A stretch of 64,000 nt of DNA, from positions 7,580 to 71,579 of the forward strand of contig JAFALY010000008.1 in assembly GCA_019233975.1 (NCBI GenBank), read 5' to 3'. Source of the DNA: Alphaproteobacteria bacterium (GTDB taxonomy: Bacteria; Pseudomonadota; Alphaproteobacteria; UBA9219). This document shows, piece by piece, positions 1-42,078 of this stretch (positions are counted from its first letter, which is position 1; every line of letters starts with the position of its first letter). The notes under the pieces were generated by a model. It had not been told where the DNA came from. It saw only the letters and a program-made list of their open reading frames with translations, and ran no database searches. The position numbers and the translations under genes were made by a program.

Positions 1-71
1 TGCACACCAATCCGGCGATCGGGCAGATGGTGATGATCGTACAAACGCGCGGCAATACCGATAGCGATTAA
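1..71 (+). CDS. 3' end of an upstream gene, possibly a TcpQ/PilL-type pilus component (partial)
   Basis: Open frame ...HTNPAIGQMVMIVQTRGNTDSD* ends in TAA at 69-71, 6 nt before the secretin ORF. Identity is inferred only from position. Confidence 0.35.
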   Translation, partial: HTNPAIGQMVMIVQTRGNTDSD

Positions 72-77
72 GAAATA

Positions 78-1805
78 ATGGTCTGGAAGGAAGCGTCGAT
101 GATGATTGTTGAATGCGGTCAGGGTAAGGTGCAGAAGGCGCTTCGCCGCTTTGCCGCCCTGTCATTCGTTTCTGTGCTCGCCCTTTCGGGTTGTGTCGGC
201 GAGGCGATGGAAAAGAAAATCGACCAGCATGCCACCCAGGCGGAGGCTGGTCTGGATGCAGTCACGCATCCTGATGTTCCGTCCAAGCATTACAACCCAT
301 TGACTGTTTCCGACAAGGTTTGGACCGGCAGCACGGCCTTGCGCATGCATCGCGGCATGCCGCTGCCTGCGCGTTTTGAAACAGCGCATGGTGTCGCGCT
401 GGTGTCATCCGAACCCATGGCATTGGCTGATATTGTCGGCGCTCTGTCGCGCCAGACTGGCATTCCTATCCATGTAACAGATGCAGGCGTCAAGCCCAAC
501 AACAACCAGCCCAATGGTGGGCAGATCCCCATGTCGGTTGCTTATGAGGGCTCGCTTTCCGGATTGCTGGAACGCGTGGCGGGGCATTTTGGTGTCAACT
601 GGCATTTCGACGGATCGACTATTACGATCAACAAATTTGAAACGCGCGTCTTTACGGTCGAGGCCCTGCCGGGCACGCAGGCTGTGCAGGAAGGCATGCA
701 GGATGATAGCAGTGGTAGCGGCGGCTCTTCTTCTTCCGGTAGCAGCGGTGGCGGTGGTTCGCAAAACACTATCACGCAGAACTCCAAGTTCAGCATCGAT
801 ATTAAATATTGGGATGAACTGGGGCAGGTCCTGAACTCCATGCTGGGTGGCACGGGCTCGGTTGTCGTGTCGCCGTCACTCGGTACCGTGGCCGTGACAA
901 CATCGCCTGAAATCATGCACACGATCGCTGATTATCTGGCGCAGGAAAACCAACGTATCTCACGCCAGATCGCGATCAATGTCGAAATTTATACCGTCAG
1001 CCTGTCGAAGGGCATGAACTTCAGCACTGCGTTTAACACCGCGTTGCATGGCCTTATCACGATGAACGGCAACATATCCGGCATATCGGCCCCGGCCACG
1101 GCGAATACAGGCTTTACGGGCGGCGGCAATCTGTCGCTGGCCATTATCGATCCGCGTCGCTTTGGTTCGGTGACGGATGTCTTGTCGGCGCTTTCTGCAG
1201 TTGGCAACGCGGCCAAGGTTGCCAAGTTCCCGCTGATTACGCTGAACAACCGCCCCGTCTCGCGCCGCATTGGCACAGACACCAACTATGTCGCTTCCGC
1301 GACCAGCAATACGTCGGGTTCCGGCACCACCAGCACCTTCTCAGGCACCAGCCTGACGCCGGGCACTGTGCACGAAGGTTTCTCGGTGCAATTGACGCCG
1401 CGCCTTCTGGATGATGGTCGTATCTTGCTGCAATACTCACTTAGCATCGTTGATCTGCTGAAGCTGGATTCATTCAACAGTGTTTGCGGTAATACCGGCG
1501 ACTCGCTGACCTCCAGCTCATCATCCAACAGTTGCTCGACCGCGACATCCTCGCAGGGCAGTAGCACGGTGCAGTTGCCGAAGACATCGAACCGCATCTT
1601 TGTGCAACAGTCCGTGCTGAAGAGCGGGTCAACCCTGTTCATCGGCGGTATTGAAGAAGAAGATTTGGCGCAAAACTCACAGGGTGTCGGCAGTGCGGAT
1701 AACTTCCTGCTGGGCGGTGGTACGTCGACCAATGATGATCATGAGATGGTTTTCTTTGCGCTGACCCCTCAAGTTCTTGATGTGCCGCATTCGGAGAAGG
1801 AATAA
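78..1805 (+). CDS. pilN: Type IVb pilus outer-membrane secretin, PilN/BfpB/TcpC family lipoprotein
   Basis: Lipobox LSGC; Ser/Gly-rich linker; secretin motifs (VSPSLGTVAVT, QIAINVEIY, ITLNNRP, GFSVQLTPRL, LKSGSTLFIGG). The exact start is uncertain. Confidence 0.85.
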   Translation: MVWKEASMMIVECGQGKVQKALRRFAALSFVSVLALSGCVGEAMEKKIDQHATQAEAGLDAVTHPDVPSKHYNPLTVSDKVWTGSTALRMHRGMPLPARFETAHGVALVSSEPMALADIVGALSRQTGIPIHVTDAGVKPNNNQPNGGQIPMSVAYEGSLSGLLERVAGHFGVNWHFDGSTITINKFETRVFTVEALPGTQAVQEGMQDDSSGSGGSSSSGSSGGGGSQNTITQNSKFSIDIKYWDELGQVLNSMLGGTGSVVVSPSLGTVAVTTSPEIMHTIADYLAQENQRISRQIAINVEIYTVSLSKGMNFSTAFNTALHGLITMNGNISGISAPATANTGFTGGGNLSLAIIDPRRFGSVTDVLSALSAVGNAAKVAKFPLITLNNRPVSRRIGTDTNYVASATSNTSGSGTTSTFSGTSLTPGTVHEGFSVQLTPRLLDDGRILLQYSLSIVDLLKLDSFNSVCGNTGDSLTSSSSSNSCSTATSSQGSSTVQLPKTSNRIFVQQSVLKSGSTLFIGGIEEEDLAQNSQGVGSADNFLLGGGTSTNDDHEMVFFALTPQVLDVPHSEKE

Positions 1806-3067
1806 TGGCTGGTAGCGGCGTCGTTACCGTCGGCCGCCGCGCCTACGCCGTCGGCCTGTATTGGGAAAACAGCCCGGCCGGGCGTGTCAGTCTTGCCGCG
1901 AAAGAGGCCGCGCGCCAGCCGGGACAACAAGCCGAGTTTTTTGCCGTGCGTCCCGGTAATAAAGAAGGGCGCTTGCCGCAATTCGGTCTGGGGCAGGCCA
2001 GCGCAGGGCAAAAGGCCGGCATGCCGGCCTTTGCCGGATGTTTGGCGCAGCAACAGCAAGGCTCATGGGCTGGCGCATTCCGCCTGAAAGAAGGCGTTGT
2101 CGTTACAGTTGTGCGTGATGAGCTGATCGTCCCGGATGGCGACCAGATTTTCACGAGTGAAAACGAAGCGCGTGACCGCTTGCTGCAAGAAATCAGCTTT
2201 GGTGGACTGCAGCGCGTCTATGCACCTGAGTCATGGGGCATCCCCGGTGTTGATACAATGCCGGTTTCGTTGCTGCTGGATGAACGGCGTGATGTTCGTC
2301 TGCAATATGTCACGGTACCGCGTTCGACCTATATCATCGGCGGCATTGTTGCCACGTTGATTATCGGCGGCCTCGGCGTGAACTGGTACATACAGGCCGA
2401 AGAAGAAAAGAAGGCGGCCATGTTGGCGGCACAGGCTGAGGCTCGCCGCCGTGCTGCTGCCATGTTGCCCGGCGTTTTACAGCAACAGCCGGAATATCCG
2501 CCACCTGAGCGTAAGTGGGAAAAGCTGCCACCTGCGCTGAGCGTTGTTAATGCTTGTCATGACGCTCTGGCGCAAATCCCGGCTATTGTTGCGGGTTGGC
2601 GCATGACGTTGCTGAAATGTGACGGTAACTCCATCAATATTTCATGGGCACGTGAAAAAGGTCCGTCGCGTCCGCCGGAAGGCTCAACGGTCAATGAAGG
2701 GGCCACACAGGCATCTTTGTCTATACCACTCAATGCCTTAGAGCCCCGCGGCCCCGAACAGCTCATTGCTGCGGCGGAAGTGACCAAACGTTATTTATTG
2801 CAGGATTGGCAGACAAATCTTGTGCATGCGCAAGACGATCCGCTTCCGAAACCACCGCCGGGCTTTACGGGCGCATGGAATCCGCCGCCCGCCCCATGGG
2901 TTAAGCGTTCCTTTACGTTTTCTATCACACAATTGCCCGCAAGTCTTCCCTACTACTTCGATGGGCTGCCTGGGGTTATTGTTGAGACATTGACCTTTTC
3001 CCCGTCGAACAATGGTGTCAGCGGAAGCTGGTCGGTTCAAGGGGTTATCTATGAAAATCGTAACTAA
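1805..3067 (+). CDS. pilO: Type IVb pilus accessory protein PilO2
   Basis: N-terminus YAVGLYW...AKEAAR, VVRDELIVPDGDQIF, one central TM helix and a C-terminal GW..C motif. Overlaps the pilN stop (TAATG). Confidence 0.75.
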   Translation: MAGSGVVTVGRRAYAVGLYWENSPAGRVSLAAKEAARQPGQQAEFFAVRPGNKEGRLPQFGLGQASAGQKAGMPAFAGCLAQQQQGSWAGAFRLKEGVVVTVVRDELIVPDGDQIFTSENEARDRLLQEISFGGLQRVYAPESWGIPGVDTMPVSLLLDERRDVRLQYVTVPRSTYIIGGIVATLIIGGLGVNWYIQAEEEKKAAMLAAQAEARRRAAAMLPGVLQQQPEYPPPERKWEKLPPALSVVNACHDALAQIPAIVAGWRMTLLKCDGNSINISWAREKGPSRPPEGSTVNEGATQASLSIPLNALEPRGPEQLIAAAEVTKRYLLQDWQTNLVHAQDDPLPKPPPGFTGAWNPPPAPWVKRSFTFSITQLPASLPYYFDGLPGVIVETLTFSPSNNGVSGSWSVQGVIYENRN

Positions 3068-3776
3068 GCTGCGGCTACAAAAAATCGGGACTATGGTCAT
3101 GGCCGCGTGCGTCATGGGTCTGGCCTCTGGGTCTGTTGCCCGCGCTGCGGATAATGTCCCGCAATTACCGCCGCCGACAAACATCAATTTGCCCGAGCCA
3201 ACGCCAACTTTCACGCCGCCGGTGGTGGAAAATGGTGCGGGCGATAATAGATCAGTCGCCGCGCTTGAATCAAAAGTGACGGACTCGGTGAAGGGTGCCA
3301 TCAAGGGGCTGAGCAACCCGAATGCCCCGCTTAACCTGGATGATTTGAATGCTGCACGTCAGGCTGTAGCCAAACTGGATGCGTTGATTGATATTCAGAA
3401 GCGTTTGGCGGAACTGAACAAGCTGAAGGAAGATCAGGACCGGCACTCAACTTTGGCCGCCGCTATTCCCGCGAGCGCACTGACCCTGCCGCCGCCCAGC
3501 ATGCACGGTGCCGGACAGGATATTCCGGTTGTCCACCCCGTCATCCATTCCGTGCATGTTGACATTGTGCGTATTGTCGGCGCTTCAGGCCATTACGAAG
3601 CCGTTTTGCGCACGCCTGATGATAACAACAAGACGGTTCGCGTCGGCGACCGTCTGAGTGATGGTACGGAAGTGACGGCGATTGCTGCTGATTACGTTGA
3701 CCTGAAGTCGTCGACGGGTCAAAAGCATTTAAAGGTTCAAGGTGTCAGCAACGTCTACGGACATTCATCTTTATAA
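3051..3776 (+). CDS. pilP: Type IVb pilus biogenesis protein PilP-like
   Basis: Signal peptide, coiled coil, and a C-terminal domain VRIVGASGHYEAVL...TVRVGDRLSDGTEVTAI. Lies between pilO and the ATPase. Confidence 0.7.
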   Translation: MKIVTKLRLQKIGTMVMAACVMGLASGSVARAADNVPQLPPPTNINLPEPTPTFTPPVVENGAGDNRSVAALESKVTDSVKGAIKGLSNPNAPLNLDDLNAARQAVAKLDALIDIQKRLAELNKLKEDQDRHSTLAAAIPASALTLPPPSMHGAGQDIPVVHPVIHSVHVDIVRIVGASGHYEAVLRTPDDNNKTVRVGDRLSDGTEVTAIAADYVDLKSSTGQKHLKVQGVSNVYGHSSL

Positions 3777-3870
3777 TTCTTGTTACCGGCATTGGGGCCG
3801 GGGCTGTGACGATTATGCCAACCGCATGGTCAGACATTCTGACTGACCGATCCTTGCGCAGGAGAAAGTA

Positions 3871-5772
3871 GTGTTCGGTCTTTTTAAATCTGATGACAAG
3901 AAAAAGGATAAAGCCAAGCCTGCGCCACAAAATGTAAAAAAGCAGCCGGCCGCCGCCGTGCCTGCCGAGGCCAAGCCTGTTCCGCCGCCCGTCGTTGAAG
4001 AGAAGAAGGCTATGACGCAGGCGACACAGGCTGCCGCCAGCCAGACCGCGCAGGCGAGGCCGGAAAATATCATCAAGATCGAAGACGAACGCAGCCTGGC
4101 GATGGCCGGCGCTTCGCTGAACTTCTCGGGCGAAGTGCTGACGGCCATCAGCGGTAAACTGAAAATTCCCGATGAATCGCGCAATCTTTGCGCCTTGTTC
4201 GACAATGGCCTGTGGCTGGTCAGCGCGTCGCATCGTCGCTCGCCACTCGTGACATCTGTCGCGCTGATGGCAAAGCGTCAGGGGTATCAGGTTGATGAAC
4301 CGCGCTATGTTACGCCGAATATCATCAATCAGGCCTATATCTACGCCTCACGCAACACGGCAGCCGGGCAATTCGATGAAAACGCCATCCGCCGCAAGAT
4401 CGTACACCTGCTGGAAAGCGCGGTGGCGGCAGGGGCTAACGATATTCACATCGAAGCCGTCAACAACCAGACGCGCATAGAATTCCGCGTGGACGGCGCG
4501 TTGCGCGTTTGGGAAACATGGACCCAGCGTGAGGGTGAACAGGTTCTGTCCTCCATCTTCTCGCACTCCATTGGCCAATCGGGTTCAACCGCCAACTGGC
4601 AGGAACCGCAGGCGGCGATGTTGACATCGGACGCGCGGGGCCGCGATACGATCTCGTTGCCGAACGGCGTCATCAGCGTCCGCTGTCAGTGGGTGCCGTT
4701 GTCGAATGACGGGCGTTATCTCGATATGCGCCTGCAGTATGACTCCGCCTACCTGTTCGGCGAAAATTTTGTGATGGCCGACGTTGACTCGCTCGGCTTC
4801 TCTCAGGAACAGTTGCGCGTCATTCAAACGCTCCGTGCCCTGCCGGGCGGCATGCGTATTTTTACGGGTCCGGTTAACCAGGGTAAGACGACCACGCTGC
4901 GCGTGACGCTGAACCGCCGTATGGCGGAAACCATGATGCAGTTGAACTGTCTTTTGATCGAAGACCCGCCCGAAGGCGGCGTCATCGGCGCGCGCCAGAT
5001 CGGTGTGTCCGCGTCGGTCAAGGATGATCAGCGTGAAAAAACATTCGTTGAAATCATGCGCTGCGCCTTGCGCCTTGACCCGGATATCGTGATGCTGGGT
5101 GAAATCCGCGACTTGCAGACGGCAAAATTCGCTTTCCGCCTTGCGCTCACAGGGCGTCAGGTTTATACGACGGCGCACGTTTACTCGGCATTGGCGACAC
5201 CCAAGCGTCTCCGTGACATCGGTATTGAGCCTTATATGGTGTATGACCACCATCTGGTTCGCGGCATGATCTGTCAACGCCTGCTGCGTTGCGTTTGTCC
5301 GGATTGCCGTATCCCCATTGCCGACGCGGTGCGCGAACTCGGCCCGACTTATAACGAACTCGCGCGACGCGTGCGCACGGGGTTGGCCTTGATGGATGCG
5401 CGACGTAACAAGGCGTTTGCAAACATGTCGCCCTATGATCATTTGTCTGAACCGAACATGCAGTCGATCTATGTCGCTAATCCGCAAGGTTGCCCCAAAT
5501 GCTATAAGGGCCGCGTAGGCCGCACCATATGCGCCGAGGTTATCGAAACAGACGCGCAGTTGATGGGATTGCTGCAGGACAACCGGATGCAGGAAGCCGA
5601 AGATTACTGGCTGTCGCCGGTCGGCCTGAACGGCATTACCATGCTGTGGCACGGGTTGGAAAAAGTGCGTCGCGGCGATGTTTCGCCCAACGATGCCGAG
5701 TTTGAATTGGGCCTTTTCGCACGTGACCGTGAACTGATTGAAGTTGAAGAAAGATTGGGGGCTATGCTGTGA
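3871..5772 (+). CDS. pilQ: Pilus assembly ATPase, PilQ/GspE/PulE family
   Basis: ANDIHIE, FRVDG, Walker A GPVNQGKTT, IEDPPE, LRLDPDIVMLGEIRD, and zinc motifs CPDC/CPKC. Confidence 0.9.
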   Translation: MFGLFKSDDKKKDKAKPAPQNVKKQPAAAVPAEAKPVPPPVVEEKKAMTQATQAAASQTAQARPENIIKIEDERSLAMAGASLNFSGEVLTAISGKLKIPDESRNLCALFDNGLWLVSASHRRSPLVTSVALMAKRQGYQVDEPRYVTPNIINQAYIYASRNTAAGQFDENAIRRKIVHLLESAVAAGANDIHIEAVNNQTRIEFRVDGALRVWETWTQREGEQVLSSIFSHSIGQSGSTANWQEPQAAMLTSDARGRDTISLPNGVISVRCQWVPLSNDGRYLDMRLQYDSAYLFGENFVMADVDSLGFSQEQLRVIQTLRALPGGMRIFTGPVNQGKTTTLRVTLNRRMAETMMQLNCLLIEDPPEGGVIGARQIGVSASVKDDQREKTFVEIMRCALRLDPDIVMLGEIRDLQTAKFAFRLALTGRQVYTTAHVYSALATPKRLRDIGIEPYMVYDHHLVRGMICQRLLRCVCPDCRIPIADAVRELGPTYNELARRVRTGLALMDARRNKAFANMSPYDHLSEPNMQSIYVANPQGCPKCYKGRVGRTICAEVIETDAQLMGLLQDNRMQEAEDYWLSPVGLNGITMLWHGLEKVRRGDVSPNDAEFELGLFARDRELIEVEERLGAML

Positions 5773-6872
5773 GCGATAGCTTTAACCTTGACGAACTGGA
5801 ACGCAAATTTACGAAGTATCAGTTCAGTTCGAATCCCAAACACCGTTTTCGCGTGTACCGTAAGCTGGAAGGTATGTTGCGTATGAACGAAGCGTTGTCG
5901 CGCGCGCTTGACCGTCTGTATCAGAACGCATCGGAAATGGGCAAGCATCCGCGCCGGCCGCAGGCGGTGGCACTTAGGGATTGGTTTCTGAAAGACCGTT
6001 CGGGTATCAGCCTCTCCGAGGCGATGGAGGGGTGGATACCGACCGGCGAATTATACATGATCCGCGCGGGTGAAGAGTCGGGTACACTTGCAAAGGCGCT
6101 GCGCTCCATTCAAACGGTCGGCGACAAGGCGCGCGCCATGCGCAACGCGATTATGCATGCGGTGGGCTACCCTGCCTTTATGCTCGTGCTCGTGTCCTTC
6201 GTGCTTTATATGTTCGGCGTGCAGTTGATCGACAACATGCGCAAAGCGGCGCCAAAGAATGTCGTCGCAGCCATGGGCGATGTCGTCACCATGTCGGATT
6301 TTATCCGTAATTACGGGCTGTATGTCGTTGTCTTCGTTCTGGCGTCCATTTTTGTGATTTCAGCCAGCCTGCCTGTCTGGCGCGGCCCTTTGCGCTCTAA
6401 ATTCGATATGTTCCCGCCCTGGTCATGGTATCGCATTCTGCAAGGCAGCGGCTTTTTGCTGGGCCTGTCCGCGCTGTTGGGCGCACAAGTCCCCTTGAAA
6501 CGCTCGCTTGAGATTTTAGAAGAGCAAGGCAATCCGTGGATACGCGAACGCATCGCCAGTGCGCGTCAGGAAGTTCTGCGCGGCAAGAATTTGGGCGAAG
6601 CGCTGCGTACGGGCCGCTATAATTTTCCGGACCCCACGGTTGCCATCGATCTGGAGATTTTGTCGGAACGCGCGGACGTTGGTTCGGTGATTGAACAGGT
6701 CACCGAAGAATGGATGCGTGAACAGATTGACACGCTGAACGCGCAGGCGGTGGTGGCGCGCAATATAGGCCTTGCTGTTGTCGCTGGCGTTATCACATGG
6801 ACCATGATGTCAATTTTCAATGTCGTGACAGAACTGACAAAGACCGGGTCCAATAACCTGCATAATTTCTAA
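5769..6872 (+). CDS. pilR: Inner-membrane platform protein, PilR/GspF family
   Basis: LSEAMEGW, IRAGEESGTL, YP followed by TM helices, and PPWSWYR. Overlaps the ATPase stop. Confidence 0.85.
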   Translation: MSDSFNLDELERKFTKYQFSSNPKHRFRVYRKLEGMLRMNEALSRALDRLYQNASEMGKHPRRPQAVALRDWFLKDRSGISLSEAMEGWIPTGELYMIRAGEESGTLAKALRSIQTVGDKARAMRNAIMHAVGYPAFMLVLVSFVLYMFGVQLIDNMRKAAPKNVVAAMGDVVTMSDFIRNYGLYVVVFVLASIFVISASLPVWRGPLRSKFDMFPPWSWYRILQGSGFLLGLSALLGAQVPLKRSLEILEEQGNPWIRERIASARQEVLRGKNLGEALRTGRYNFPDPTVAIDLEILSERADVGSVIEQVTEEWMREQIDTLNAQAVVARNIGLAVVAGVITWTMMSIFNVVTELTKTGSNNLHNF

Positions 6873-6894
6873 CAAACTTTGTGGTGGACGTATC

Positions 6895-7572
6895 GTGGTT
6901 CGTATGGCCTTGCATCACCTAACGTTACGCCGGGCGCGGCGCGGGTTCACACTGACGGAAATCGCCATCGTTCTTTTGGCGGTCGGCGGCATCTTGTCAG
7001 CCATCTGGGTGGTGGGTGGTCGCGTGTGGGAAAACTACCGCGTCAATCGTACCCTGCAGGAAACAGTTTCCGTTATCGGTAACATACGCGATGCGAATAC
7101 CGGCCGTTATTCATGGGCGGCGGCAACGGATATGACGCAGACACTGGACGGGCAAAGCATATTCCCAACGGAAATGGAGCGCACGCCCACGAATGTTGGC
7201 AACACGGCCATTGACCATGCTCTGAACGGCAGTTTTGGCGGCGGCGTGTCGCCCAACTGGGGCTCATTCCATGTGTTGTCTATCGCTAACCCGTTACTGG
7301 GTGGCAATGTGTACAATGTGTTTCGCATATCCCTGCGCGGTCTTGCGGCTTCGGCCTGCGCAAAAATCCTGATGCAATTGCCACTTTCCGATGCACAAAT
7401 GGGTATTGTACAGATTGGCGTAACGGCAACGGGCACGAATTCGTCGATCATCAAAAACGGTGTGGCGACGGCGGGCGGTGTTACGCCTATGTTGCCGACC
7501 ACGGCGGAATCATGGTGCGCCTCCACAACCAGTACGAATGAGGTCGATCTTGACGTTAAGCTGCACAACTAA
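6895..7572 (+). CDS. Prepilin 1 (PilS-like minor pilin)
   Basis: RRARRG|FTLTEIAIVLL prepilin cleavage motif with E5; C-terminal Cys pair. Confidence 0.8.
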   Translation: MVRMALHHLTLRRARRGFTLTEIAIVLLAVGGILSAIWVVGGRVWENYRVNRTLQETVSVIGNIRDANTGRYSWAAATDMTQTLDGQSIFPTEMERTPTNVGNTAIDHALNGSFGGGVSPNWGSFHVLSIANPLLGGNVYNVFRISLRGLAASACAKILMQLPLSDAQMGIVQIGVTATGTNSSIIKNGVATAGGVTPMLPTTAESWCASTTSTNEVDLDVKLHN

Positions 7573-8251
7573 GCGAGCGCGCCGGGTAGGGGCGGGATTT
7601 AGCGTCACAGAGCTGGCCGTTGTGCTGGCCGTCAGTGGTATTTTGATGGGTGGCATCTGGGTTATGGTGCGTTCGGTCTGGGAATATTACGAGCGCCAGC
7701 ACGCAGTCGAAGAAGTCGCCAATATCGTCGCGAATGTGCGAAGCTATTACACGGGGCAGATCGGCATCCCTCATTCCGGCGACGCAACGACCACATCAAA
7801 CCTTATTAAAATGGGAATCATTCCGGGATCGGTACAACGATCCAATACTGGCACCTGTACAAATCCCAGTAACCTTTGTGCGGATACGCCGTGGGGTGAA
7901 GTTCACAATGGCGCCATTGACGCAGGCGGAACCTTGCGCGTTTGTGACTGGGTCATGGGCACATCAACCGCTTGCCCAACGGCGGCCAGTGGTGGCACTG
8001 CGGGGCCGTTTTTTGCCGTTGCCTTACGCGGGTTAACAACTGGCGCCTGCATTTCGGTGGCGCAGAAAATCGCCACGACGGCGGGGGCAACTGGCCTTGT
8101 TGAGGTTAACATTAACGGTACCAATCTTGTCCAGTCCGGCAAAGGCATTAACCCGATGGCCGCAGCAGACGCGAACACAAACTGTATCGCCACTGCATCT
8201 GGCGCGGCCATCGTCACATTTGTTTTTCGCCTGACGCAGGCATCCTATTAA
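7550..8251 (+). CDS. Prepilin 2 (PilS-like minor pilin, Cys-rich)
   Basis: GAG|FSVTELAVVL motif, TPWG, and several Cys pairs. TTG start at 7550 follows GAGGT; ATG at 7538 is an alternative. Confidence 0.8.
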   Translation: MTLSCTTKRARRVGAGFSVTELAVVLAVSGILMGGIWVMVRSVWEYYERQHAVEEVANIVANVRSYYTGQIGIPHSGDATTTSNLIKMGIIPGSVQRSNTGTCTNPSNLCADTPWGEVHNGAIDAGGTLRVCDWVMGTSTACPTAASGGTAGPFFAVALRGLTTGACISVAQKIATTAGATGLVEVNINGTNLVQSGKGINPMAAADANTNCIATASGAAIVTFVFRLTQASY

Positions 8252-8286
8252 AAATCACTAGAGTGTGACTTAAAATCCCGAATATG

Positions 8287-8301
8287 TTTACGTGGTATTA
8301 A
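8287..8301 (+). promoter_or_regulatory. CtrA-like box TTTA-N7-TTAA upstream of pilin 3
   Basis: TTTA-cgtggta-TTAA has one mismatch to the TTAA-N7-TTAA consensus and lies in the intergenic gap before pilin 3. Confidence 0.55.
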
Positions 8302-8359
8302 GGATTGGGCTGCCAATCTACGCTTACTGATCCCACCTCCCGCCGTCATGGAGTATGAC

Positions 8360-9025
8360 ATGATTCATTTTTCAAAGAACCGCCTTGTTCGTTCGTCGGA
8401 ACAAGCCAAACGCGGCTTTACACTGACAGAAATTGCGATCGTCCTGGGCGTTATCGGCCTTATCCTTGGATCGATCTGGGTTGCCGCCGCGGCCGTTTAT
8501 AACAACATGCGCGTTTCAACTGCGACACGTGGTTTGCTGGCCATTACACAGGCGGTTCGCTCGCTCTATGCAACATCGTCGACGGTCAGCACGAACGCCG
8601 ACATGACAACCATTCCGTTTACAACGGTTGCTGCCGGTGCGCAGACAACCTACCCGCAGTCGGGTGTGTTTGATGCGGACATGGTCATTGCTGCTGGCGG
8701 TAATTACAGCGTTCAAGGTCCGTGGACCAATGGTTCGGTGAATATCGTTGCTGCCAAGTCCCTGGCTACTGCCGACTCATTCGCCATTGAATTCGACAAC
8801 GTGCCACAAGCCGCCTGTATCCAGATGCTGATTAGCGTTACCGGTACGGCGCGTGACCCGGGCCTTTATGCGGTTCAAGCCGGTGCGGCTGGCGCTTTGG
8901 TCATCGCTGCCGGTGGTAACGCCACAGGTACGCAGACGGCCTTCCCGCTGGACGCGGCAACGGCGCGTGGTCAATGCGCCAACGCTCTGAACAACGTTGC
9001 CTTCCAGTTCAAGCTGAAGGGCTAA
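8360..9025 (+). CDS. pilS: Prepilin 3, probable major pilin (PilS-like)
   Basis: AKRG|FTLTEIAIVLGVIG; GPWTNGSV and FDNVPQAACIQM (PilS-like); GGAG RBS; own upstream gap and a downstream terminator. Confidence 0.75.
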   Translation: MIHFSKNRLVRSSEQAKRGFTLTEIAIVLGVIGLILGSIWVAAAAVYNNMRVSTATRGLLAITQAVRSLYATSSTVSTNADMTTIPFTTVAAGAQTTYPQSGVFDADMVIAAGGNYSVQGPWTNGSVNIVAAKSLATADSFAIEFDNVPQAACIQMLISVTGTARDPGLYAVQAGAAGALVIAAGGNATGTQTAFPLDAATARGQCANALNNVAFQFKLKG

Positions 9026-9068
9026 GGGACAGCAGATCAGTTGACGTCCTCGTGACGTCACAAAGAAT

Positions 9069-9100
9069 AAAGGCGGGAAACATTGTTTCCTGCCTTTTTT
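9069..9100. terminator. Intrinsic terminator, probably bidirectional (pilin/lysS)
   Basis: Stem AAAGGCGGGAAAC-att-GTTTCCTGCCTTT followed by a T run, between convergent genes. Confidence 0.8.
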
Positions 9101-9120
9101 ATTGGGTATTTGGGGGCCGC

Positions 9121-10620
9121 TTAGTCAACCGGCCGCATGGTCGGGAAGGCGATAACTTCGCGAATGGTCTGGCTGTCGGTCATCAGCATGGCCAGACGGT
9201 CGATACCCATACCCATACCGCCCATTGGGGGCATGCCGAAAGCCATGGCTTTCAGGAAGTCTTCGTCAATCGGGTGCGGCGGATCATCCGGCCCGCGCTT
9301 TTGTTCAGCCTGTTCTTCAAAGCGCGCGCGCTGCTCGCGCGGGTCGTTCAGTTCACTGAACGCATTCGCGATTTCCCAGCCATTGACATAGGTCTCAAAA
9401 CGCTGTGCCACATGCGGGCGGTCCGGCCATGCCTTGGCGAGTGGTGAGATTTCCTTGGGCAGGTCGATGACATGAGTGGGCTGCACCAGATTATGTTCAA
9501 CCTTGTCACCAAACGCAGCTTCGACCACCTGACCCCAGCTGACGCCGGATTCGGTTTGTACGCCGATTTTCAGTGCGGCTGCGCGCGCTGCGGCGGCATC
9601 CGGAATAGCGTAAAGATCAAGGCCCGTGTGTTCCTTGATCAAATCGACCATGCCGCGGCGCGGCCAAGGTGGCGTAAAGTCAATTTCATGTTCGGCGAAC
9701 TTGATCTTTGACGTTCCGTGCAGCGATAACACGACGTGATGCACGATGGCTTCGGTAATCGCGATCATTTCCCTGAAATCGACAAAAGCCTGATAAAGCT
9801 CGATTGACGTAAATTCAGGGTTATGGCGCGGGCTGGTGCCCTCGTTGCGAAAGCAGCGGCCGATTTCATAAACCTTTTCCGAAATACCGCCGATGACCAG
9901 ACGCTTCAGATGCAGTTCTGTTGCCACACGCATATAAAGCGGCATGTCCAGCGCATTGTGGTGTGTCGTAAACGGCTTGGCCGTGGCGCCGCCTGCCAGC
10001 ACATGCAGCATCGGCGTTTCAACTTCCAGAAAACCTTTGTCGTTCAGGAACTGGCGGATCAGCGTGATCATCTTAAACCGGGCGCGCAGTGTGTCGCGCG
10101 TGCGTTGGCTTGCGACCAGATCCTGCTCGCGGTGGCGGAAGCGGAAATCGACATCCTTCAGACCGTGGAATTTCTCGGGCGGTGGCTCCAGCGCTTTGGA
10201 AAGCAGCGACAGTTCAACCGCATCAACAGTGATTTCGCCGCGCGGCGTACGGCGCACAATACCGGTCACGCCGATAATGTCGCCCAGGTCAATCAGGTCC
10301 AGCTTTTCCGCATGTTCGGGCGACAGGGTTTTCAGGTCGTGGAAAATCTGCAACCGGTCGCTGTCATCCAGAATGACGATGAACATACCATTATTGCGGA
10401 TTGCCATTACGCGCCCGGCGACCGATATGTGATCGGTTGTTTTTTCACCGGGGGCCAGTGCTTCGTATTTCGCCTTAACGACGGAGGCTTCGTGGGTCTT
10501 GCCAAAGGTCGTAATGTTAAACGGGCTGCCGAAACGCTCGGTATAGGCGGCCAAACGCCCATTGCGGCGTGAAACTTCGTCAATCGCGGGGGCGGCGGTT
10601 TCTGTCTGCTGCTGGCTCAT
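9121..10620 (-). CDS. lysS: Lysine--tRNA ligase, class II
   Basis: OB fold VAGRVMAIR; motif 1 FLEVETPML; motif 2 FRNEG..RHNPEFT; motif 3 GMGIDRL. Confidence 0.95.
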   Translation of the reverse strand: MSQQQTETAAPAIDEVSRRNGRLAAYTERFGSPFNITTFGKTHEASVVKAKYEALAPGEKTTDHISVAGRVMAIRNNGMFIVILDDSDRLQIFHDLKTLSPEHAEKLDLIDLGDIIGVTGIVRRTPRGEITVDAVELSLLSKALEPPPEKFHGLKDVDFRFRHREQDLVASQRTRDTLRARFKMITLIRQFLNDKGFLEVETPMLHVLAGGATAKPFTTHHNALDMPLYMRVATELHLKRLVIGGISEKVYEIGRCFRNEGTSPRHNPEFTSIELYQAFVDFREMIAITEAIVHHVVLSLHGTSKIKFAEHEIDFTPPWPRRGMVDLIKEHTGLDLYAIPDAAAARAAALKIGVQTESGVSWGQVVEAAFGDKVEHNLVQPTHVIDLPKEISPLAKAWPDRPHVAQRFETYVNGWEIANAFSELNDPREQRARFEEQAEQKRGPDDPPHPIDEDFLKAMAFGMPPMGGMGMGIDRLAMLMTDSQTIREVIAFPTMRPVD

Positions 10621-18562: not shown

Positions 18563-18667
18563 TAAAGCCTGTCGTAGCCCTAGCAGTCTTGGTTAACTTG
18601 TTATAGTGTTAACAAACGGCAGAAGTGATTCTGTCGGACAGTCTTTCGTTTGCTCTATCGGCTTTGC

Positions 18668-21600
18668 ATGCGCGGTAAAAAGAGTCTCTATCTTGGGCCA
18701 GTCCTGTTCGCGACCCTGGGGGTTTGCGGGGCCATGTCTGGCGTGGTGCTGGCCGAAGATGTCCCTGCTTTAACAATCGCGGCACGCGCGGGCGAACACC
18801 CCGATTTTGACCGTGTGGTGTTCGATTGGCCGCGGGATGTGCCCTATAAGGTCAAACGCGACGGCACACGCGTCACCATTCATTTCGATGCGGCTGCCAA
18901 AGTTAAATTTAACGGGTTCAACGACCTGACCCGCGCGCTGGGTTTCCGCACTACGCAAGACGATAAAGGCAATTTGGAAGTCAGTTTTACCGTCAACGGC
19001 AAAGCCGGGTTGCATGATTTCACCAGCGGCCATTCCATCGCCGTGGACATACAAGGCGGCGCAGCGTCATCAGCGGATGTTCCGGCGGCACCCCAAGAGG
19101 TCAAAAAGCCGCCAGCGACAGTTGCCGACAAGATACCAGCGCTGACGCCTGCAACACCGCCTGCCTCCGTGTCTGCGCCTGCTGCGGCCAAACCTGTAGC
19201 TGCTACCCCCACACCGGCCCAATCATCGGCTACGCCTTCAGCGCCAGCCGCGCCCCCCCCTGCCGCTACACAAACCCCTGCGGTGGTCGTGTCATCATCG
19301 GTGCCGGTTGCAACAGTAGCGCCTTTGCCGACATCACTGGTGCCGGAGCCCATCAAGCCGACTGTGTCTTCGAACATGCCGGTTATTCAGCCGCCCTTGT
19401 TGGCCAAAACAGGCACACAGACCGCGCCAAAGCCACCCGTGCAGGCACCTGCACCTGCGGCTCCTCCGGCTGCCGCACCAACAGATACCTCCAGTGTCAA
19501 CAAAACCGGGCTTATTACACTACAAGACATCACCCAGACACCCGCCTTGGTGGTGACGTTCGACCCGCACGTCGCGGCGCGTGTCGCCGTATGGCAACGT
19601 GGCGGCTATGGCTATCTGATGTTCGATCGCAAGCTGACGGTGCCGTTGGATTCTCTAATTGCGGGCCAGCCTGCGCCGCGTGTAGCACTGGAAAATGTCG
19701 ATATGCCGGACGCAAACGGCTACCGTTTTCCGGTACCGCCGGATGTGGATGTGCGCGCGACACAGTCCGGCACGTCATGGAAAATTTTTATGGCGCGGCA
19801 AATGACCGACATGCCGGTTGCCACGACTTTGGTGGCGCAACCCGACTTTGCGTTGGGCGCACGTTTCCTGTTGCCCTTGCCAGATGCGCCAAAGCCGATA
19901 CCGATGACCGACCCGGTGGTGGGCGATACGCTGATTATTGTGCCGCTCAGCAAAAGCGAGGCTTTTACCATGCCGCGGCGCATGGCGGATTTTGAAATCT
20001 GGCCTGCGGCACAGGGGCTGGTTATACGTCCCCTGACGGACAAGATCCTGGTGCGCAACCTGTCGGATGGAATCGAAATTACGGCGGATGGCGGCCTGCA
20101 TATGTCCAGCACCTTTGATACGGGCGCCAGCCAGCAATCAAATGAAAAGGCGCGTGCGAGCGCTGTGGGCAAGTCCATATTTGATTTTGCCACATGGGCG
20201 GGCAAGCCGGATGAAAGCTTCACGCAAACACGCCAGCGTTTGCAGCAGACGATCGTGGACGTGCCGGAACGCGAACGTAACCGCGCGCGTCTGGAACTGG
20301 CGCGGTTTTATTTCGCGCATGGCTATGGCGAAGAAGCCTTGTCCATGCTGACTGACCTGATCAAACAGTTGCCAGACCTTGCCGTACATACCGATTTTAT
20401 GGCGTTGTATAGTGCTGCCAAAATTCTGGCCTACCGTCCCGAAGAGGGCATTAAGGACCTTAACAACGACGTTTTCGCCAACCAGCCGGAAATCGATTTG
20501 TGGCTTGGCGTCGGTTATGCCGAAATGCGTGACTGGAAATCGGCGGAAGAAAAATTCTCGGTCAACGAAGCTATCTTGTCCGGTTATCCGGAACCTTTCT
20601 ACTCGCGTTTCTCTGTACTGGCGATTGAATCGGCACTGGCAGCGGGGCGCGACCGCGAAGCGGCGGACTGGCTTGATCGGCTGGAAACAGACAACCACAC
20701 ACAGGAAATTCAGCCCGCGATTGAATATTTGCACGGTGTTTTGCATGCCCGTTCTGGCCGCGCGCGCGCGGCAGAGCAAAGCTGGAAAGACGTCATGCAA
20801 AGCAATGACAGGCTTTACAAGGTGCGCGCTGAGTTGGCCTTGATCGACCTTGGCGTGGCCGATAATTCGCTGACCCCGGCGCAGGCCGCCGAACGGCTGG
20901 AGGCGCTGCGCTTCGGTTGGCGCGGCGACACGCTGGAACTGGATATCCTGCATCGTCTGGGCCAATTTTACATTCAGGCAAAGAATGTGAAGCAGGGCAT
21001 GAATGTCCTTAATCAGGCCATTCATTTGTATCCTGACGTCTATATGGCTGGCAAAATCAAACAGGAAATGTCGCAGACTTTCCATGACGTCTTCCTGACG
21101 GATCTGGGACAGAGTCTGTCGCCGTTAGAAGCATTGACGCTGTATCAGCAATATCATGACCTGATGCCGACGGGTGATGACGGCATTGCCGTGATGCGTA
21201 ATCTGGCCGAGCGTCTGATTGCGATTGACCTCCTGGATCAGGCCGCCGGTCTTCTGGATGATCTGGCCCGCAATAAACTGACGGGTAAAGAAAAGGCGAA
21301 AGCCAGTTCACGTCTGGCGGCGGTACGGTTGCTTGACCACCATCCTGAGCAGGCGCTCGAAGCGCTCGATATCGGCAATGGTGAATTTCTGCCCGCCGAC
21401 ATGCAGCATGAACGCTTGTTGCTGCGCGCCAAGGCGCTGTCTGACCTGCATCGCGATGACGAAGCGTTGGGCCTGCTGCGTGACAACAACCGCGAATCCG
21501 CAAAATTGCTGCGCGCCGATATCAGCGCGCACGCCCGTGACTGGCCCGCGACGGCCGCCGCTTTGCTGGAACTTATCGGTCCGCCGCCGAAGCCGGGTGA

Positions 21601-21898
21601 GGTTCTGTCGCATGATCAGGCTGACTGGCTCGTACGTGCCGCCACGGCCTATGCCCTTGCCGGTAACCAGACCGCGCTGGATAAGCTGGTGATCGACTAT
21701 GGCGCGGCCATGGCCGGAACACAGCAATATGATACGTTCCGTGTCCTGAGCCAGCCGGAAATTAACGGCCAGTTGAAAAACATAACGGCGGCACAGTCTA
21801 ATTTGTCGCAGGTTGATTTGTTCCAGGGCTTCCTGAACAGTTACCGCACGCCGTCCGGCACCACGCCACCAGCGGGAGCTGGAGTGAAGGTGAAGTAG
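18668..21898 (+). CDS. Large exported TPR-repeat protein with Pro/Ala-rich linker
   Basis: Signal peptide; GEHPDFDRVVFDW domain; long PAPA linker; helical repeats (ARLELARFYFAHGYGEEA, LEALRFGWRGD, LAERLIAIDLLDQAA). Confidence 0.75.
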   Translation: MRGKKSLYLGPVLFATLGVCGAMSGVVLAEDVPALTIAARAGEHPDFDRVVFDWPRDVPYKVKRDGTRVTIHFDAAAKVKFNGFNDLTRALGFRTTQDDKGNLEVSFTVNGKAGLHDFTSGHSIAVDIQGGAASSADVPAAPQEVKKPPATVADKIPALTPATPPASVSAPAAAKPVAATPTPAQSSATPSAPAAPPPAATQTPAVVVSSSVPVATVAPLPTSLVPEPIKPTVSSNMPVIQPPLLAKTGTQTAPKPPVQAPAPAAPPAAAPTDTSSVNKTGLITLQDITQTPALVVTFDPHVAARVAVWQRGGYGYLMFDRKLTVPLDSLIAGQPAPRVALENVDMPDANGYRFPVPPDVDVRATQSGTSWKIFMARQMTDMPVATTLVAQPDFALGARFLLPLPDAPKPIPMTDPVVGDTLIIVPLSKSEAFTMPRRMADFEIWPAAQGLVIRPLTDKILVRNLSDGIEITADGGLHMSSTFDTGASQQSNEKARASAVGKSIFDFATWAGKPDESFTQTRQRLQQTIVDVPERERNRARLELARFYFAHGYGEEALSMLTDLIKQLPDLAVHTDFMALYSAAKILAYRPEEGIKDLNNDVFANQPEIDLWLGVGYAEMRDWKSAEEKFSVNEAILSGYPEPFYSRFSVLAIESALAAGRDREAADWLDRLETDNHTQEIQPAIEYLHGVLHARSGRARAAEQSWKDVMQSNDRLYKVRAELALIDLGVADNSLTPAQAAERLEALRFGWRGDTLELDILHRLGQFYIQAKNVKQGMNVLNQAIHLYPDVYMAGKIKQEMSQTFHDVFLTDLGQSLSPLEALTLYQQYHDLMPTGDDGIAVMRNLAERLIAIDLLDQAAGLLDDLARNKLTGKEKAKASSRLAAVRLLDHHPEQALEALDIGNGEFLPADMQHERLLLRAKALSDLHRDDEALGLLRDNNRESAKLLRADISAHARDWPATAAALLELIGPPPKPGEVLSHDQADWLVRAATAYALAGNQTALDKLVIDYGAAMAGTQQYDTFRVLSQPEINGQLKNITAAQSNLSQVDLFQGFLNSYRTPSGTTPPAGAGVKVK

Positions 21899-40524: not shown

Positions 40525-42078
40525 GTGCTATGCCGCACTCATATTGGTGATTTTATTGTATATGAGCCAACAATGGCGGGTGCAGGCCAAAGTCGTTTTT
40601 TTAAGGACGCGGTGACAGGCGACCCGCGTGGTATTGCCTTTGACACTGCCGATCCCCACGAACAGTTGCTTATCTCCCTCATCGACACACCCGCCATGGC
40701 CCGTATGGGGCGCATCTTACAACTGGGCGCCAAGTCAACCCTGATCGGTGCTGAACATACGCGTCGTGAACACATGATCCATGCCGCCGCCTTGGCGCGT
40801 TATGCAACGGCACATTTGCGCCGCGCCATGGACCGTGCGCAGCCGGGTTTATATGACCCGCGCCTGGGTCTCGCCTGTATGGTGGCGTGCTGTCTGCATG
40901 ATATCGGGCATCCCCCTTTGGGGCATGAATTTGAAACGGTCGCGCAACGTGTCAGCGGCAGAAAATTCCATCATGAGGATTGGAGCGCCCGTTTAATCAG
41001 GGAAGATGTTCATATCCAGTCGTGCCTGCAAGGTTTTGTGACTGCGCACACGGGTTATGCCGAAACCTTTGTTGCTGATTACGGCATGACGTTTGATGAA
41101 ATGGTGGTCGCCCTTATCGAGGGTAAGGCCCCGTGTGAACTGGCGGCGTATCAATCACTGGTATCCGGTAAAATAGATTGTGACCGCGGGTCGTTTTTGC
41201 CCATTGACCGTGCACAGGCGCAGGGCGTCAATCTGGAAACAGAATTACCCGATGATCTATGGGCGGATATTGAATTGGCGCAAGTGGATGGCGTGACCGT
41301 CATTGTGCATGACCGTGTAAAGGCCGAGCAGTTTCTGATGGTCTGGCGCGAACAATACGAAAAAATTTATTACGTGGCGGGCAGCGACAGCAAAGAAAGC
41401 ATGCTGGCCCCCATCCTGCATGACTTTTTGCAATCCGCACATACCACGCTAGAGCATTTAAGCCTTGAGGAAATGGCCCTGTACCGCGTTCTGTCAAACG
41501 ATGGCACGGCAAGCATCAGGGATTATTTGATGTTGGATGATCGCGTCATCGAACGTGTTATCGAGCGCGCGGCCGAATCCAACCCCGATCCATGGGTTCG
41601 CCGTCTTGCGCAAGGTATTATGCAGGATGATATCCTGCCTTCACTGGATTTCAGTCATTTAGACAAAAAACACCGCGATGGTTTGATCCGTTATTTGCAG
41701 ACACGGCTACCGGAAGGGGTCGTCGACGGCACGCATATTTTTGTGACAAATGAAAAAAGCCGCGATGTCGCAAAGCTGCACAAAGCTTATGGCACACCGG
41801 CCTTTGATGATCATCACAATGTTGCGTATGTGCGCAACGCCACTGGGAATGTCGTACCTGTTCAACATGCTTCGACCGTCATACAGGGCACGCCGCCGTT
41901 GAATGCCATGTACCTTCATGCAGAAGCGGATGTTCTGTATACCCTTGTTCCGGTGATTAATGACTATCTGGCGGCTGCCGGATATGACGACAGCATCGAT
42001 GCAGGTTCTATCCTTTATCATACGGGTGTCAGGCATTGGGGCGCAGCGGGCAGTGCACCTGCTGGCGTTCAGCCATAA
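40525..42078 (+). CDS. HD-domain phosphohydrolase, SAMHD1/dNTPase-like
   Basis: ILQLG, HTRREH, LHDIGHPPLGH, HHE and IDCDR. The start may be 40573. Confidence 0.7.
   Translation: MLCRTHIGDFIVYEPTMAGAGQSRFFKDAVTGDPRGIAFDTADPHEQLLISLIDTPAMARMGRILQLGAKSTLIGAEHTRREHMIHAAALARYATAHLRRAMDRAQPGLYDPRLGLACMVACCLHDIGHPPLGHEFETVAQRVSGRKFHHEDWSARLIREDVHIQSCLQGFVTAHTGYAETFVADYGMTFDEMVVALIEGKAPCELAAYQSLVSGKIDCDRGSFLPIDRAQAQGVNLETELPDDLWADIELAQVDGVTVIVHDRVKAEQFLMVWREQYEKIYYVAGSDSKESMLAPILHDFLQSAHTTLEHLSLEEMALYRVLSNDGTASIRDYLMLDDRVIERVIERAAESNPDPWVRRLAQGIMQDDILPSLDFSHLDKKHRDGLIRYLQTRLPEGVVDGTHIFVTNEKSRDVAKLHKAYGTPAFDDHHNVAYVRNATGNVVPVQHASTVIQGTPPLNAMYLHAEADVLYTLVPVINDYLAAAGYDDSIDAGSILYHTGVRHWGAAGSAPAGVQP

Follow-up and report, generated by a model that had tools for sequence, protein, structure and literature searches.

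The bundle-forming pilus (BFP) of enteropathogenic Escherichia coli and the toxin-coregulated pilus (TCP) are free-standing type IVb pili, and the thin pilus of plasmid R64 holds recipient cells in liquid. [quoted passage not shown] Micavibrio is an epibiotic predator of bacteria. Here, we analyzed a 64,000-nucleotide stretch of a genome labelled Alphaproteobacteria bacterium (G000:C4:7580-71579, G000 being the source genome; hereafter the window), which opens with a pilN-pilO-pilP-pilQ-pilR operon followed by three prepilin genes. This operon is, in our assessment, probably the pilus module of a chromosomal, vertically inherited T4BSS of Dot/Icm- or IncI-like type that has retained an R64-type thin pilus; the pilus would catch a target cell, most likely bacterial prey, and the T4BSS would translocate proteins.

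A 2024 review regards T4BSS on the chromosome as a defining trait of intracellular Gammaproteobacteria that branch deeply (PMC11338181). In addition, the available text of Needham et al. 2022 (PMC9418006) reports in one sentence, on the basis of MacSyFinder, a relaxase-less I-type type IV secretion system (T4SS), named pT4SSi, in seven marine Micavibrionales, and that text says nothing of a link to a pilus, of vertical inheritance throughout the order or of any part in predation. This was the only mention that we found in the literature on Micavibrio or alphaproteobacterial predators and T4BSS.

The pilus operon follows a block of type IVB secretion genes

The 7.6 kb before the window encode on the same strand, in this order, a conserved 291-aa protein without assigned function, a lytic transglycosylase of SLT/TrbN-like type, a thioredoxin-fold protein resembling DsbG, a 109-aa open reading frame (ORF), DotD/TraH (PF16816, 97 bits), DotC/TraI (PF16932, 246 bits), a DotB/TraJ-type ATPase, IcmT/TraK (90 bits) and PilL. 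The ATPase scores higher with the DotB model than with the TraJ model (TIGR02524, 406 versus 243 bits) and aligns over 368 residues with DotB of PDB 6geb, which we take to be the Legionella protein, with about half of the positions identical (371 bits). PilL matches TcpQ (PF10671, 46.9 bits, above cut-off); its gene runs into the window and ends 7 bases before the pilN start, and its orthologues in relatives lie directly 5′ of pilN as well. With this arrangement, the pilus does not stand alone, and tra genes accompany it. The initial annotation had named upstream tra genes as a sign against a domesticated pilus; such genes do lie there, but they belong to a vertically inherited T4BSS and not to an integrated conjugative element (ICE).

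The other loci of the machine were found by tblastn with pND6-2 and Roseomonas plasmid queries. Between tsaD and ogt, contig C19 encodes two copies of DotI, DotH, DotG, a weak DotF-like protein, a TraQ-like protein, IcmJ/DotN, DotO, DotM, two proteins of unknown family and a PilV-like prepilin. DotO (1001 aa) is 36% identical over 1009 aa to its pND6-2 homologue and has no solved relative at E <= 1e-5, whilst DotM (167 bits) and DotN (75 bits) both score below their equivalog cut-offs. A TrbC/DotL-type coupling protein, best matched by the IncI TrbC model (362 bits), is encoded alone on contig C33, between genes for a methyl-accepting chemotaxis protein and a heptosyltransferase of lipopolysaccharide synthesis.

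DotA required closer inspection. The TraY/DotA model (TIGR04346) gave no match in this genome, and the same model detects both control plasmids. The resulting assumption that DotA is absent was dropped, as DotA sequences of relatives matched the last 280 bases of contig C22, where an N-terminus of 92 residues, encoded beside radA, runs off the contig end (L146:9222-9497). The DotA gene thus appears to be truncated by an assembly gap and not missing.

Altogether, the machine comprises PilL, N, O, P, Q and R, three pilins resembling PilS and a tip adhesin resembling PilV. To these are added DotB, C, D, G, H, I (two copies), M, N and O, IcmT, the TraQ-like protein, the coupling protein of DotL/TrbC type and DotA, the last as a fragment; in this genome, the parts are distributed over four core-flanked loci. 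In terms of mating-pair formation type I (MPF_I), the set present includes a VirB4-family TraU/DotO, the coupling protein, TraH, I, J, K, M, N, O and Q, and TrbA.

The system is vertically inherited across the order

We determined the distribution of these components among 71 genomes of the order and subsets thereof; the tallies include the unpublished G023 and G110, on which no claim depends. DotC/TraI (PF16932) was present, nearly always in one copy, in 68 of the 71 genomes and in all 47 high-quality (HQ) ones, the three negative genomes being only 54-74% complete. DotO was found in 37/41 genomes and the coupling protein in 39/41 (29/29 HQ in either case), and DotA/TraY in 62/71. Of 40 relatives, 35 encode a PilN orthologue; the remaining five, in which no clear one was found, are 54, 62, 74, 89 and 93% complete. 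As the initial annotation would have it, the distribution among relatives is not patchy, with the misses falling mostly on incomplete genomes. DotA/TraY is often multi-copy in the order (1-5 matches per genome), and most of its genes are located elsewhere than the main cluster.

Trees were inferred by maximum likelihood for DotO (33 rows) and for PilN (86 rows); in both, the three families f1, f2 and f3 required one change each, which is the minimum. By the Shimodaira–Hasegawa-like approximate likelihood ratio test (SH-aLRT), the families received values of 97, 100 and 100 in the PilN tree; in the DotO tree, two reached 100 and the third was compatible with a single clade but unsupported (26). 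The depositors' labels among 55 related loci read Alphaproteobacteria, Rhodospirillaceae, 'Bdellovibrionales' and Micavibrio, and NCBI places Micavibrio under Bdellovibrionales. Two loci labelled Micavibrio by their depositors (L038 and L067) nest inside f1, the family of the genome studied here, in the PilN tree and carry dotD-C-B-icmT-pilL-R. Taken together, the system is vertically inherited across an order of small alphaproteobacteria related to Micavibrio.

A class-wide sample with 398 genomes from outside this family also showed the same cluster in further alphaproteobacterial families with small genomes (26 of the 398); DotB is 61-72% identical there. Seven genomes (G122, G294, G141, G158, G220, G323 and G384) showed dotD-C-B and no pilN-R in 20-kb stretches, most of them keeping icmT and pilL. 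The large genomes G076, G224 and G260 yielded only ordinary MPF_I-like matches (32-43% identity).

The operon encodes an R64-like type IVb pilus

The eight ORFs that open the window, named with Pfam and NCBIfam models, are all intact and on the plus strand (Table 1), and neighbours overlap or are separated by no more than about 100 bp. Their GC content of 0.54-0.59 compares with 0.53-0.60 in the flanks. The gene order, tight packing, flank-like composition and chromosomal setting given in the initial annotation were all confirmed.

The assignment to an R64-like type IVb pilus, likewise proposed there, was upheld by secretin and ATPase trees with a small reference set that contained neither TCP, nor R64 itself, nor GspE. 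PilQ grouped with the pND6-2 PilQ, BfpD and the BFP-like plasmid ATPase of pJKHS016 (SH-aLRT 98), and PilN with the pND6-2 PilN and BfpB (SH-aLRT 99), separate from the genome's own MSH-like (MshE/PilB-like), second T4P/T2SS-like (contig C39), Tad (TadA) and PilT-like proteins. In line with this placement, the best solved relative of PilN is BfpB (9u5s, 175 bits). PilN has the lipobox LSGC, and its Cys39 is invariant among nine orthologues. Identity to the pND6-2 proteins amounts to 22% for PilO (against PilO2, 447 aa), 30% for PilQ and 33% for PilR, PilQ being 63-84% identical among relatives. The position of pilP is kept in relatives; its match to the PilP model is itself weak.

All three prepilins carry leaders of about 14-23 residues, as read from the translations, with cleavage at G|F, Gly at -1 and Glu at +5; the residue at +1 is F, as in type IVa pilins. 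PilS_N scores above cut-off in two of the three. For prepilin 2, the translation suggests that the true start is likely the ATG at 7538.

The PilV-like prepilin (G000:C19:47160-48551; L006:1161-2552) combines an N_methyl motif with a C-terminal Peptidase_S74 (endosialidase-chaperone) module and shows weak matches to phage tail fibres. It is 27% identical to pND6-2 PilV over 292 aa, with a TM score of 0.50 to PilV clusters. In relative G028, its gene closes the dot-pil cluster; in the present genome, it has moved beside dotM.

Three more type IV filament systems are encoded in the genome (contigs C27, C39, C18 and C5; L149-L152), namely an MSH-like system whose ATPase is of MshE type, a divergent set of secretin, ATPase and platform protein, and a Tad locus, plus a PilT-like ATPase. 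The contrast drawn in the initial annotation between this pilus and the Tad pili of alphaproteobacteria was therefore incomplete, since the genome has both.

Table 1. Coordinates of the pilus operon and its borders in the window.
Feature	Position	Strand	Identification and remarks
pilL, 3′ end (TcpQ-domain protein)	1..71	+	whole gene G000:C4:6412-7650, mostly upstream of the window; TAA stop at 69-71
pilN, lipoprotein secretin of type IVb pilus	78..1805	+	TIGR02520, 267 bits, best secretin model by far, though below its cut-off of 287.65; other models: MshL 78 bits, PilQ (T4a) 19 bits
pilO, PilO2/BfpC-type assembly protein	1805..3067	+	PF06864 PAP_PilO, 99 bits, full length, above cut-off
pilP	3012..3776	+	TIGR03021 pilP_fam, 28.4 bits, below cut-off of 34.65; start codon uncertain; overlaps pilO end
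pilQ, pilus extension ATPase	3871..5772	+	T2SSE PF00437, 187 bits
pilR, inner-membrane platform protein	5769..6872	+	T2SSF PF00482, two stretches
prepilin 1 (PilS-like)	6895..7572	+	leader ...RRARRG|FTLTE; prepilin motif TIGR02532; PilS_N 16.8 bits, below cut-off
prepilin 2 (PilS/bundlin-like)	7460..8251	+	PF08805 PilS_N 32.8 bits; Bundlin 20.6 bits; leader ...RRVGAG|FSVTE
prepilin 3 (PilS-like)	8348..9025	+	PF08805 24.1 bits; N_methyl 20.6 bits; 23-residue leader ...EQAKRG|FTLTE
intrinsic terminator	9069..9097	.	13-bp stem with 6 GC pairs, then TTTTTTATT
lysS, core gene, downstream border, outside the system	9121..10620	-	NF001756 lysine-tRNA ligase, 596 bits

Downstream border and neighbouring genes

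The terminator, which includes a T run and is located between the stop of the third prepilin gene and that of the convergent lysS (position 9121), is the strongest match and the sole strong plus-strand terminator in 1-9200. lysS adjoins the operon in none of the 55 related loci. In agreement with the initial annotation, no tra, relaxase or integrase gene lies downstream, where lysS, a methyltransferase, a thiolase and FadB are followed by 44 further ORFs of at least 90 aa to the end of the window at 64 kb, 32 of them with housekeeping families and 12 without a family. The window ORFs at 18650-21898 (1082 aa), 40525-42078 (517 aa) and 62679-63866 (395 aa) have no Pfam family at E <= 1e-6. On contig C19, between sodB and a nitronate-monooxygenase-like gene, a free-standing 186-aa ORF (G000:C19:28667-29227; L005:2668-3228) carries an intein splicing domain (PF14890, 36.7 bits).

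Arrangement of the cluster in relatives

An alignment query of PilN recovered the 55 related loci, whilst a single PilN query found no relative. DotC lies immediately upstream of the pil genes in 28 of these loci; in three, the sequence breaks off inside DotB; 14 are free of dot genes over at least 8 kb of upstream sequence; and ten are too short upstream or rearranged. In relative G028, a single contiguous cluster spans about 38 kb, with DotH at one end and PilV at the other and with aconitase and lnt as its neighbours; therefore, the genome studied here has dispersed an ancestral single locus.

Additional genes were observed within the cluster of some relatives. In G032, tandem proteins of 510-624 aa without Pfam family, five of them paralogues with 31-71% identity, are encoded between the coupling-protein gene and the 291-aa gene (G032:C1:105412-115297; L081:1413-11298) and are possible substrates or variable surface proteins. 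At the same position, G028 has one 526-aa ORF without family that matches none of them, and G000 has no homologue. In G028 (L078:7578-9887) and G032, the cluster also contains genes for a family 4 glycosyltransferase (GT4) and a Wzy_C/O-antigen-ligase-like protein, which in G000 are found beside a PBP1A gene (C41; L145:3134-6075); the two are possibly a pilin glycosylation pair.

Proposed function and alternative explanations

By analogy with R64, the pilus, tipped by the adhesin with its phage-tail-fibre-like C-terminal module, would catch and hold a target cell, and by analogy with Dot/Icm systems, the T4BSS would next translocate proteins into the held cell. We infer that the system most likely serves contact-dependent attack or attachment, and that pilus and T4BSS are probably the cell-contact and injection apparatus of Micavibrio relatives. 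The target cell would most likely be bacterial prey, because the family includes Micavibrio-labelled genomes, kinship with Micavibrio being the sole basis for this step.

Several observations weigh against this model. No prepilin peptidase of PilU/BfpP type is encoded within the cluster, the four A24 peptidase genes of the genome being on contigs C29, C18, C16 and C3. In this assembly, DotA is represented by no more than its 92 N-terminal residues. Neither an effector nor an adaptor of IcmS/IcmW type was identified, though IcmS, IcmW and LvgA were not searched for. The authors of the M. aeruginosavorus ARL-13 genome state that evidence for type III or IV secretion is lacking (PMC3189940). The occurrence of relaxases in the order and the separability of the pilus and T4BSS modules count on the same side and are best considered along with the alternatives that they favour.

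One such alternative, which we regard as unlikely, is that the system, as a domesticated conjugation apparatus, continues to transfer DNA, mobilizing small scattered relaxase-bearing elements or chromosomal DNA, with the thin pilus stabilizing mating pairs as in R64. Every part of the machine has an IncI/MPF_I plasmid counterpart, the gene order matches that of pND6-2, and the coupling protein is closest to IncI TrbC; moreover, MOBP relaxase domains, found in half of the order (35 of the 71 genomes, at 0-12 copies), leave room for a DNA-mobilizing role. However, relaxase families PF03432, PF03389, PF08751 and PF07514 gave no match in the present genome, which is 100% complete by marker genes in 41 contigs (other MOB classes and the transfer origin oriT were not tested). 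In the genomes compared, the relaxase domains lie far from the cluster, and 22 of the 47 HQ order genomes are without MOBP, yet all 47 keep DotC. The ATPase, too, is nearer to DotB than to TraJ. The T4BSS is thus probably relaxase-less and non-conjugative, as the initial annotation had supposed for the pilus.

The MOBP relaxase-domain ORFs are short (about 250-330 aa), number up to 12 per genome (e.g. G051, G011 and G016) and occur patchily across the order, perhaps as parts of small mobilisable elements.

A further possibility, close to the initial annotation and in our view improbable, is that the pilus is functionally independent of the T4BSS, serving adhesion, aggregation or motility and merely sharing ancestry and neighbourhood with the dot genes. 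BFP and TCP do stand alone, and the modules are separable, as the 14 loci with pilL-R and no nearby dot genes come from a clade whose genomes keep DotC elsewhere, and several further lineages of alphaproteobacteria retain the T4BSS, with pilN-R missing from the stretches compared. Against such independence, pilL directly follows icmT on the same strand in 28 of the 55 loci and in the present genome, a link also encountered on MPF_I plasmids, and the PilV-like adhesin gene, last in the joint cluster of G028, has here moved to contig C19 along with dot genes.

Alternatively, the T4BSS might serve host manipulation as it does in Legionellales, with protists or other eukaryotic cells as its target in place of bacterial prey. 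Thin pili are bacterium-to-bacterium contact devices in the plasmid relatives, which does not favour a eukaryotic target, and neither does the presence of Micavibrio-labelled genomes in the family, as cultured Micavibrio prey on bacteria according to the available text of the genome paper (PMC3189940). On the other hand, all characterised chromosomal T4BSS act on eukaryotic hosts, as stated in the accessible part of the 2024 review (PMC11338181), DotB has its close counterpart in 6geb, and the genomes are small (1.5-2.4 Mb). Overall, we give this explanation little credence.

Finally, an ICE or a decaying plasmid insertion, suggested by homology and synteny with conjugative plasmids, is ruled out as nearly as can be by the core flanks and flank-like GC content, the absence of an integrase, relaxase or tRNA border in or beside the loci examined, the near-universal and almost always single-copy presence in the order, trees that follow taxonomy, and the intactness of all genes.

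Returning to the pilus module of a vertically inherited T4BSS, a more far-reaching version can be put forward tentatively. The joint T4BSS and thin-pilus cluster may be the contact and feeding apparatus of Micavibrio-type epibiotic predators and would then be the first T4BSS aimed at bacterial prey, domesticated from an IncI-like conjugation system whose mating pilus was kept as a prey-catching harpoon, and old enough to be common to several other small-genome alphaproteobacterial lineages, whether these have the pilus or not. In that case, the conservation of a T4BSS throughout a lineage would cease to indicate that its members are adapted to eukaryotic hosts, which bears on arguments that take it as such evidence (preprint 10.1101/852004). 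A universally kept Dot/Icm-like machine with a pilus and a tail-fibre-like adhesin is also a concrete candidate for the means by which predators of Micavibrio type fasten onto their prey and empty it from the outside, and one that can be deleted and imaged. In addition, the thin pilus retained here bears on the evolution of T4BSS from conjugation systems.

Comparison with known systems

The closest counterpart in gene order is the Pseudomonas putida plasmid pND6-2 (NC_018746.1, typed MPF_I), which reads DotD-TraI-ATPase-IcmT-...-TcpQ-PilN-PilO2-PilP-ATPase-PilR-pilin-PilV and, similar to the system described here, has a second block from DotI, DotH and DotG through DotO, with identities of 22-41%. 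In contrast to IncI1/R64-type MPF_I plasmids, the present system is inherited vertically on the chromosome and divided among core genes; no integrase and none of the four relaxase families accompany it, its cluster is without a prepilin peptidase or PilT-like ATPase, three pilin genes are present, and the adhesin carries a Peptidase_S74 tail-fibre module.

BFP (pMAR2) resembles the pilus part in its lipoprotein secretin, TcpQ-like partner, PilO/BfpC, ATPase, platform and long-leader pilins, but it stands alone, with its own peptidase, a retraction ATPase and several minor pilins, and has no linked T4SS.

Dot/Icm-type T4BSS of Legionella-like organization are likewise relaxase-less, chromosomal and lineage-wide I-type T4SS spread over several loci, and share DotB, C, D, G, H, I, M, N and O, IcmT, a DotL-type coupling protein and DotA with the present system, which differs in being alphaproteobacterial, in keeping a type IVb thin pilus and possibly in having a bacterial target. 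The pT4SSi described in the available text of PMC9418006 is probably the same system. The system described here is a vertically inherited, apparently relaxase-less T4BSS that retains a thin pilus, a variant of a known system type.

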